DNA of 32,000 nt from Candidatus Saccharimonadota bacterium (GTDB lineage: Bacteria > Patescibacteriota > Gracilibacteria > BD1-5 > UBA6164), in NCBI GenBank assembly GCA_965227835.1, contig OZ245768.1:210001-242000 (forward strand), given 5' to 3'. The position numbers and the translations under genes are program-made. Below the pieces are notes generated by a model that ran no database searches, had not been told where the DNA came from, and saw only the letters and a program-made list of their open reading frames with translations. Below, piece by piece: positions 8,251-9,700 of this stretch (its first letter is position 1; every line of letters begins with the position of its first letter).

Positions 8251-8296
8251 CCCTCATCCTAACCCTCTCCGAGGGAACCTCACCCTAACCCTCTCC
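8251..8296 (+). repeat. GC-rich family-1 repeat units, the last one truncated at the IS110 junction
   Basis: The sequence is ccctcatcctaaccctctccgagggaacctcaccctaaccctctcc. It ends exactly where the hairpin loop ttaga would be expected. Confidence 0.65.
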
Positions 8297-8595
8297 ATCT
8301 ATACCTCACCCCCAACCCCTACTATAAGAAACATTAAATAAAAAGATGGAATAAATGTTAATTATATATAGAGTATTATGAAGAAAATCAAGTGAGATAG
8401 AGAGTGAATGTCCCCTAATATAAAAAAATATTTAAGAGAGTAAATTCCTATCTCACTCTTATGTTTTAATAATGTATCAATAGGTAAAGCAATATTCATA
8501 TTCCTAAGAATATATATATTAGCTTGTATAACTAAGTAGGCAATTTTAAAAACATAATTGATTTTCAACATTTTATTTCCTTACCCATATTAATT
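8297..8595 (+). ncRNA. Candidate structured non-coding RNA (bridge-RNA-like) in the IS110 left end
   Basis: This is a 299-nt non-coding stretch upstream of the recombinase. A 10-bp stem pairs agtgagatag (8391-8400) with ctatctcact (8448-8457). The stem encloses an internal loop and a small aatat/atatt hairpin. No convincing ORF is present. Confidence 0.3.
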
Positions 8596-9618
8596 ATGAG
8601 CAAGAATATACTATACAAAATTGATTTAAAATCAATCGTTTCTATAGGGCTAGATGTAAGTAAAAATAAAATAGATATTTGCTTACATAGCAATGAAAAA
8701 AATTTCTTCTTACAAATTAAAAATAATGAAACATGAATTTCTAATCTCATTAGTTGATTAAAAAATAATAATTTTAATCAAAATATACCTCTAGTTATAG
8801 AGTCAACTTGAGATTATAGTACTTTGGCTTGCATGTTACTTTCTAAAGCAAATTTCAATGTAAAAGAAATTAATCCCATTATTACTAAAAATTACACTAA
8901 ATCCACTATTAGATGAATAAAAACAGATAAAATAGATGCTAATATCCTAGCTAATATTTGAGCTTTAAATAAAAATGAATTGTTTTCTTATAATAAAACT
9001 AAAGCTTTTATTGCTATTAGTAAAAAAATATCATTGGTAGCAAATCTTGAAAAACAAATTCAATCATTAAAAATGACTATAAAAAGCTTTTATGAAATAA
9101 ACCAAAAAATTCATTTAGATATTTCTTCGAATGTAAAAAATATAAATATATCTATTTCTAAACTTGAGGATAATATTAAAAATCTTCAGAAAGAAATTCA
9201 GGAGGAGTCTATTTGAAAAGTAGAAGATAAAAAAATAGAGTTAATATGTTCTATAACAGGTTTTTCTAAATATATTGCTACTGTATCTTATGTCTCTTTT
9301 GCTCATAAAGATTTTGTTTCTAAAGAGTCTATGTATGCTTTTGTATGATATGATCCTAAATTGAAAGAAAGTGGAACTTTTAATTGAAAAGCCAGAATTA
9401 CAAAAAGGTGAAATCCTTATGTAAGAAAAAAATTGTTTCAGGCTGCTTTTTGTGCTACTAGGCATTCTAAATTGTTTAAGGGTATTTATGATAGGGCTAG
9501 AGAAAAATGAAAGCATCATTTTGTTTGTGTTATTAATGTTGTGAAGAAGATGATTCATATTTTATTTGCTTTGCTTAAAAATAACTCTGTTTTTAATCCT
9601 AATTTTGCCAAAATTTAG
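8596..9618 (+). CDS. IS110-family transposase/recombinase (DEDD type), 340 aa
   Basis: Motifs are IGLDVSKNKIDIC, VIESTGDYS, EINP, IKTDKIDANILA, YDPKLKESGTFNGKARITKRGNPYVRKKLFQAAF, and GKHHFVCVINVVKKMIHILFALLK. About 10 in-frame TGA are read as Gly. Track ORF 8980-9216 is an internal fragment. Confidence 0.9.
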
Positions 9619-9659
9619 TACTTTCTTTTCTTTTTCTTTTGACTTTCCTCATAATAGGA

Positions 9660-9700
9660 CTCTCCTTAGAGGAGATGGGAGTAAAACAGAAGGAATAGAA
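9660..9700 (+). repeat. 3' half of the family-1 GC-rich repeat split by the IS110 element
   Basis: ctctccttagaggagatgggagtaaaacagaaggaatagaa matches the 3' half of the copies at 2366-2425 and 12520-12610. Confidence 0.6.

Follow-up and report, generated by a model that had tools for sequence, protein, structure and literature searches.

RNA-guided bridge recombinases were described by Durrant et al. 2024 (PMC11208160) and Hiraizumi et al. 2024 (PMC11208158), and the system described in these two papers, IS621 of Escherichia coli (IS110 group), was used as the main reference for the element analyzed here. IS621 encodes a two-domain DEDD and Ser recombinase with five catalytic residues, carries a noncoding RNA in its left end, upstream of the gene, and uses a CT core; terminal inverted repeats are absent, a short subterminal inverted repeat is present, and in nature it targets a repeated extragenic palindrome (REP). 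In its RNA, a target loop is followed by a donor loop. According to the pairing rules given in PMC11208160, the left guide of each loop has the same sense as the left DNA plus the core, the right guide is the reverse complement of the core plus the right DNA, and the core is part of all four guides. Subterminal inverted repeats are also named, for IS4321/IS5075, in the title of a reference in PMC11208160. The targeting of REP sequences by IS110 elements has long been known (Tobes and Pareja 2006, as cited in PMC11208160; ISPpu9 in PMC12288879). In Pseudomonas putida, the IS110-family elements ISPpu9 and ISPpu10 are present as multiple identical copies at a fixed position in a repeated intergenic GC-rich stem-loop, and a hybrid promoter at the circle junction has been reported for ISPpu10 (PMC12288879; bioRxiv 10.64898/2026.03.19.712850).

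The element described below probably works like IS621 and shows the domain, boundary, fold and target-guide features of the IS110 group. It is an intact, recently active IS110-type element in a host that reads TGA as glycine. The window, i.e. the whole stretch of 32,000 nucleotides that was analyzed, corresponds to positions 210001-242000 of a Gracilibacteria-type genome that consists of a single contig of 1.49 Mb with 25.5% GC (G000:C1:210001-242000). The element occupies positions 8321-9661 of the window on the plus strand (equivalently 8319-9659), which amounts to 1341 bp counting one CT core, and its GC content is 23.6%. When positions 8101-9900 were compared with the genome by BLAST, three full copies were found (n = 3), all of them 100% identical over the whole length; copy 2 is located on the minus strand at genome positions 1194852-1196202, and copy 3 on the plus strand at 1328647-1329996. 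The identity among the three copies is confined to window positions 8317-9666, and the sequences outside are unrelated. The left junction reads CCC-CT-ACTATAAG, its CT core occupying 8319-8320; the right one reads AATAGGA-CT-CTCCTTAG, and its CT core at 9660-9661 (plus strand) is placed by the copies and by the empty sites. This CT is the only sequence common to both junctions, and there is no target duplication beyond the core dinucleotide. As in IS621, terminal inverted repeats are absent and a short subterminal inverted repeat, here of 4 nt (CTAT at 8322-8325 and ATAG at 9654-9657), can be observed.

Four uninterrupted paralogous sites (n = 4) were identified in the same genome and aligned. 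They read ...atctatacctcacccccaacccCTctccttagaggagatggg..., with CCCCTCTCC across the join and a 2-nt overlap (CT). At the empty site at genome positions 1093803-1094041, the match to the left flank ends at the equivalent of 8320 and the match to the right flank starts at the equivalent of 9660, i.e. the right-flank match begins one base earlier than the left-flank match ends, which gives the CT overlap. The boundaries, the CT core and the empty sites are in this way observed directly. The interrupted repeat consists of CCTCACCCCCAACCC-CT to the left of the element and CTCCT-TAG-AGGAGATGGG-agtaaaacag to its right. Its left half (8304-8320, plus strand) is made up of CCTCACCCCCAACCC, which is the left target, and the core at 8319-8320, and its right half (9662-9689, plus strand) of CTCC(T), which completes the 5' arm, followed by the loop, GGAGATGGG as the 3' arm and the tail. 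The insertion point is therefore located within the 5' stem arm (CCC-CT^CTCC), 4-5 nt from the outer end of the arm, and not at the edge of the loop, where the earlier note had put it. Copies 2 and 3 are flanked by ttctac(t)CC-CT on the left and by CTCCT...GGAGAGGG...gggtgagg on the right, which is the same arm in an oppositely oriented repeat; both orientations are used because the palindromic stem offers CCCCTCTCC on both strands. The sequence further to the left (8251-8303, plus strand) is host DNA, composed of upstream half-units of the repeat family (ccctcatcctaaccctctcc and acctcaccctaaccctctcc) and the spacer atctata. It is neither part of the element nor the partner of the right flank, and it is contiguous in the uninterrupted paralogues p1093, p1165 and p1484.

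All insertions of the element in this genome, namely the three full copies and one remnant, are hosted by GC-rich REP-like hairpin repeats. We counted 90 hairpins of the form CCTCTCC-N3-9-GGAGAGG on both strands, as dispersed, short, GC-rich and imperfect intergenic palindromes. The sequences CCTCACCC (88 copies) and CCCCTCTC (62 copies), again on both strands, compare with about 2 expected; for CCCCTCTC the expectation from composition is 2.3, and nearly all of its occurrences are in the repeat. For CCCCTCTCCT, 51 genomic occurrences were found where 0.12 are expected, and the sites of both CCCCTCTC and CCCCTCTCCT lie nearly all within units of the form cctcaccc-N-hairpin-agtagaacag. The target repeat is thus of the REP/BIME type by its features (short, GC-rich, many copies, both orientations).

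The earlier note had drawn the element from 8297 to 9665, with the hexamer CTCTCC at both junctions, a reading in which CTCTCC would be a junction or target duplication. It is true that joining 8277-8296 to 9666 onward yields a sequence resembling the family-1 repeat, that the strings used for this join are in place (with acctcaccctaaccctctcc up to 8296 and ttagaggag from 9666), and that the repeat is intact near 2366-2425, 12520-12560 and, reversed, 26680-26720. Against these ends, no similarity to 8297-8315 is seen in copies 2 and 3, the empty paralogues have 8297-8320 contiguous with 9662 onward, and all six elements known from this and other assemblies (see below) start with CT-ACTATA and end with AATAGGA-CT. 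The stretch 8297-8320 is host DNA, because the empty paralogous sites carry it uninterrupted and the identity of the copies covers only 8317-9666. The left end has consequently to be moved 22-24 nt further in, to 8319/8321, as given by the three copies and the empty sites, and the right end by 4-6 nt, to 9659/9661. The segment 8277-8296 is a separate upstream host sub-unit, which is also present in the empty sites and was not the partner of the right flank, and CTCTCC, although found at 8291-8296 and 9660-9665 as described, is a coincidence within the repeat family. We therefore consider the wider ends extremely improbable. What survives is the core idea of a precise insertion into a GC-rich hairpin repeat with a recoverable empty site, even though its boundaries and its reconstruction of that site do not; the caveat, which gave about 8324 as a possible left end, came close. 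The proposed comparison with other copies gave insertions that are all in hairpin repeats, with conserved ends other than 8297 and 9665. An uninterrupted allele of the locus was also sought in two genomes of the same genus; in G002 there is no orthologous empty site (see below), and the paralogous sites were used. A further possibility is that the three copies arose by segmental duplication of the element together with its flanks and not by independent insertions, so that their shared context would be uninformative about targeting. The flanks of copy 1 do belong to a composite module of about 300-400 bp with at least five genomic occurrences. However, the 100% identity of the copies gives way to unrelated sequence only a few bases from each CT core, ending at the cores and the conserved target bases, copies 2 and 3 are located in different neighbourhoods with the repeat in the opposite orientation, and the composite module occurs without the element at four sites, which makes a history of duplication highly unlikely.

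The recombinase gene, which the earlier note had correctly assigned to the IS110 family, is located at 8596-9618 on the plus strand and encodes 340 amino acids under code 25, with a DEDD RuvC-like domain (PF01548, 2.1e-20) and a Tnp (serine) domain (PF02371, 2.1e-14), each scoring above the gathering score of its Pfam family. An open frame results only when TGA codes for an amino acid, since the frame contains 10 in-frame TGA codons and the longest piece in frame under table 11 is 78 amino acids. The alignment with the IS621 transposase (8wt6) obtained by HMMER is full-length and weak (70.6 bits, E = 1.5e-18), and all five catalytic residues are intact: D20, E69, D110, D113 and S259 align with D11, E60, D102, D105 and S241 of IS621, and S259 is located within an ESG motif of the PF02371 domain. 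Six of the 10 TGA codons are aligned to glycines of IS621, and code 25 is therefore favoured over code 4. The weakness of the alignment and the need for TGA to be read as glycine distinguish the present gene from that of IS621.

In IS1111-group elements, the noncoding RNA is located 3' of the gene. The present element shares with this group (IS4321/IS5075, IS1111) the recombinase family and the site-specific insertion into repeats or inverted repeats, whereas its long noncoding end is the 5' one, with 275 nt (8321-8595) on the left and 43 nt on the right. The left end folds as two successive modules, each composed of a stem, an internal loop and a hairpin (MFE -53.2 kcal/mol, z = -3.8; better than 200 of 200 shuffles). 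The candidate bridge RNA extends from 8385 to 8570 on the plus strand and has a closing stem, a putative target-binding module at about 8391-8457 and a putative donor-binding module at about 8459-8557, with predicted guides on the loop sides expected under the pairing rules of PMC11208160. In the first module, the left target guide GTCCCCT (8410-8416, plus strand) has the same sense as the left target plus the core; its CCCCT (8412-8416) is on the 5' side, and the guide holds the sole CCCT/CCCCT of the element. Matching on the left comprises only 5-6 contiguous bases in this genome (5 nt including the core for copy 1). The right target guide GAGAG (8436-8440, plus strand), the reverse complement of CT+CTC, is on the 3' side of the same module, directly 5' of a conserved T[ACT]AATTCC. 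In the second module, the left donor guide AATAGG (8479-8484, plus strand) has the same sense as the terminal bases of the right end, AATAGG-A-CT; it matches 6 nt, and neither the base next to the core nor the CT core itself is matched. The right donor guide CTAAGTAG (8532-8539, plus strand) contains AGTAG (8535-8539), the reverse complement of CT+ACT, and covers the core; two more pairs can be formed if one donor base is bulged. In contrast to IS621, pairing is effectively limited to short guides, of 5-6 nt (left) and 5 nt (right) with the core counted in, and the left donor guide lacks the core, which is found in all four guides under the IS621 rule (PMC11208160).

Among known RNA families, an Rfam scan of 8100-9900 with E up to 10 gave only chance matches and no bridge-RNA family, and a promoter and terminator scan of the IS region performed no better than shuffles. 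In a hypothetical circle junction, a TTGACT of the right end (9639-9644, plus strand) would be located 19 nt upstream of TATAAG (8323-8328), a long spacer. The sequence TTGAC and its spacing are kept in all orthologues, and TTGACT-N19-TATAAG is a possible junction promoter.

Orthologues were collected by a genome search and by DNA-pattern scans for the conserved donor loop, and a scan of genome contigs with a protein pattern gave no match. Five orthologues from other assemblies were obtained (L002, L005, L011, L014 and L015), derived from the genome G013, which belongs to a different genus of the same family, and from three metagenome contigs; two further metagenome candidates, L017 and L018, were discarded as chance matches inside a gene. 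The amino acid identity of the orthologues is 55-64% where measured. All of them start with CT-ACTATA(A/G)G and end with ATAATAGGA-CT, i.e. AATAGGA-CT. One of them, L011 (G013:C154, 67-1628; 1560 bp), carries a TAA codon in frame within the recombinase gene, together with a G>T substitution in the left donor guide, and appears to be a decaying copy; its flanks, as far as they were read, contain no GC-rich hairpin of the target-repeat type.

In the alignment of the six elements, the scaffold and the second module are nearly invariant, and the guide loops and inner hairpins vary. The consensus fold is accompanied by compensatory changes in 7 of the 50 predicted pairs, notably in the two inner hairpins. 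As the donor ends and donor loops are invariant across the six elements, covariation was assessed for the target loops, where it is observed directly between guides and flanks. The left guide of L002 is CTTCCCT for its own left flank and core CTTCC-CT, and the right guide is TTAAG for its own CT-TAA; in L005, GCCTCT corresponds to GCCT-CT and AGAAAG to CT-TTCT; in L011, TCCCT to TCC-CT and AAAAAG to CT-TTTT; and in L014, ACCCCT to ACCC-CT and GAGAG to CT-CTC. In L015 the left side is poor, with CA instead of CT as the guide core, and the right guide GATAAG corresponds to CT-TATC. The right guide thus matches its own right flank perfectly in six of six elements, with the RNA base 5' of this guide mispaired in most of them, and the left guides of the orthologues match 2-5 contiguous non-core bases of their own left flanks. 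The sum of cognate guide-target matches is 51, against a permutation mean of 32.3 for six elements with five distinct targets, and 51 is reached by 2 of the 720 permutations. One of these is the cognate order; the other presumably interchanges the two elements whose targets are identical.

These observations lead us to read the locus, with a probability of roughly 90%, as a bridge-RNA-guided IS110 element whose target guides direct its insertion at CCC-CT^CTC of the hairpin repeat. In the mechanism proposed, which the earlier note does not name, a bridge RNA encoded in the left end would guide targeting through the target-loop guides CCCCT and GAGAG, and the insertions would fall into the repeat, as the site CCC-CT^CTC exists in this 25.5%-GC genome almost only as a stem arm of the dispersed GC-rich hairpin. 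The donor-binding loop (AATAGG and AGTAG) would recognize the joined ends of the element, ...AATAGGA-CT-ACTATAAG... The circular intermediate, the junction promoter, the expression of the RNA and the chemistry of strand exchange are presumed by analogy with IS621 and its relatives. The alternative that the protein itself reads the structure or sequence of the hairpin, as in the classical view of REP targeting, with the left-end fold a mere leader or promoter region, draws on the finding that all insertions in the element's own genome are in hairpins, and on ISPpu10, for which the target stem-loop has been reported as an extra layer of specificity (bioRxiv 10.64898/2026.03.19.712850). About 90% of the CCCCTCTC sites are in hairpins, and the four insertions therefore do not separate sequence from structure. 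The orthologues do bear on this point, since their guide loops covary with their flanks, including L011 and L015, which have no GC-rich hairpin of this type as far as read; the recombinase, moreover, is homologous to that of IS621. Recognition by the protein in place of the RNA is thus very unlikely, and the structure of the hairpin may add to the guidance by the RNA.

A remnant that consists of the left end of the element alone was also found at G000:C1:246937-247037, about 4.9 kb past the end of the window. Its left junction is normal (ttctatCC-CT-ACTATAAG), and it differs from 8319-8416 by a single base (GTCCaCT, C>A); the sequence that follows directly, CTCCTCCAAAGGAGAGGGttagggtgagg, represents the right half of a hairpin repeat. 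What has been deleted extends exactly from the guide-coding CT to the core CT of the right end, and the guide-coding CT is the sole CCCT among the 77 CT dinucleotides of the element. The remnant is the product that would be expected if the guide-coding CT had recombined with the right-end core, which suggests an aberrant excision in which the DNA coding for the element's own guide was taken as a pseudo left junction. This DNA could serve as a recombinase substrate because it is, by design, a copy of the left target plus the core, and half-match recombination by IS621 has been reported in one preprint. That the bridge recombinase sometimes acts on the DNA encoding its own left target guide is nevertheless a tentative proposal, which we hold to be rather doubtful. 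A search for further left-end remnants in G013 revealed none. As a separate observation, the empty-site paralogue at G000:C1:1484940-1485010 (genome position 1484979) reads CCCCT-ACT-CTCC and thereby contains 3 nt more than the other empty sites, exactly at the insertion point. The ACT may be an excision scar, as from an excision that used the second CT of CT-A-CT-ATAAG. If true, the remnant and the ACT scar would amount to naturally occurring evidence that excision can be register-shifted or half-site and that IS110 elements have a built-in self-truncation route.

The intergenic region that holds the element is bordered by a ComF-like phosphoribosyltransferase gene (7049-8149) on one side and by a gene (10035-11456) that is type IV pilin-like and includes a fibrinogen-C-like segment on the other, the latter followed by an RNase III gene (11637-12374). 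In G002 (L019), a genome of the same genus, the ComF-like gene is directly followed, after about 170 nt, by the RNase III gene, with no repeat, IS or pilin gene between them; the block 8150-11600, which comprises the repeat module, the element and the pilin-like gene, is therefore a lineage-specific insertion. Repeated copies of an AT-rich module (tttttgcaaa-ataaa-cttaattgcaaattatcctaaat...) lie upstream of genes, at window positions 8152-8230 and 9845-9923 and at genome positions 1094094-1094202, 1485200-1485308, 1164718-1164811 and 879292-879383, and are preceded by one to four tandem units of about 30 nt (atttgcattcagccctttgcccattaacaat). The AT-rich module, the tandem units and the hairpin together form the composite module mentioned above, which appears to constitute the leader of a multi-copy family of pilin genes. 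Elsewhere in the window, a direct repeat of 300 nt with 98% identity is present at 21272-21571 and 30184-30483, i.e. with a spacing of 8912 nt; many shorter matches have the same spacing, and the window therefore contains a larger duplicated segment.

Both the targeting of REP sequences by IS110 elements and its RNA-guided basis are already established, and the present locus opens no new question. It differs from IS621 in its host, a 25.5%-GC Gracilibacteria-type genome where the GC-rich target hardly occurs outside the repeat, and from ISPpu9 and ISPpu10, with which it shares the multiple identical copies and the fixed position in a repeated intergenic stem-loop, in host phylum, repeat family and guide sequences. 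The corrected boundaries allow a proper annotation of the repeat family and of the pilin cassette next to the element. The element is a natural and clean case of bridge-RNA targeting in a candidate-phyla bacterium that is recoded (TGA=Gly) and very AT-rich, and its orthologues, with guides and targets that change together, are useful for the annotation of such genomes and are raw material for bridge-recombinase diversity.
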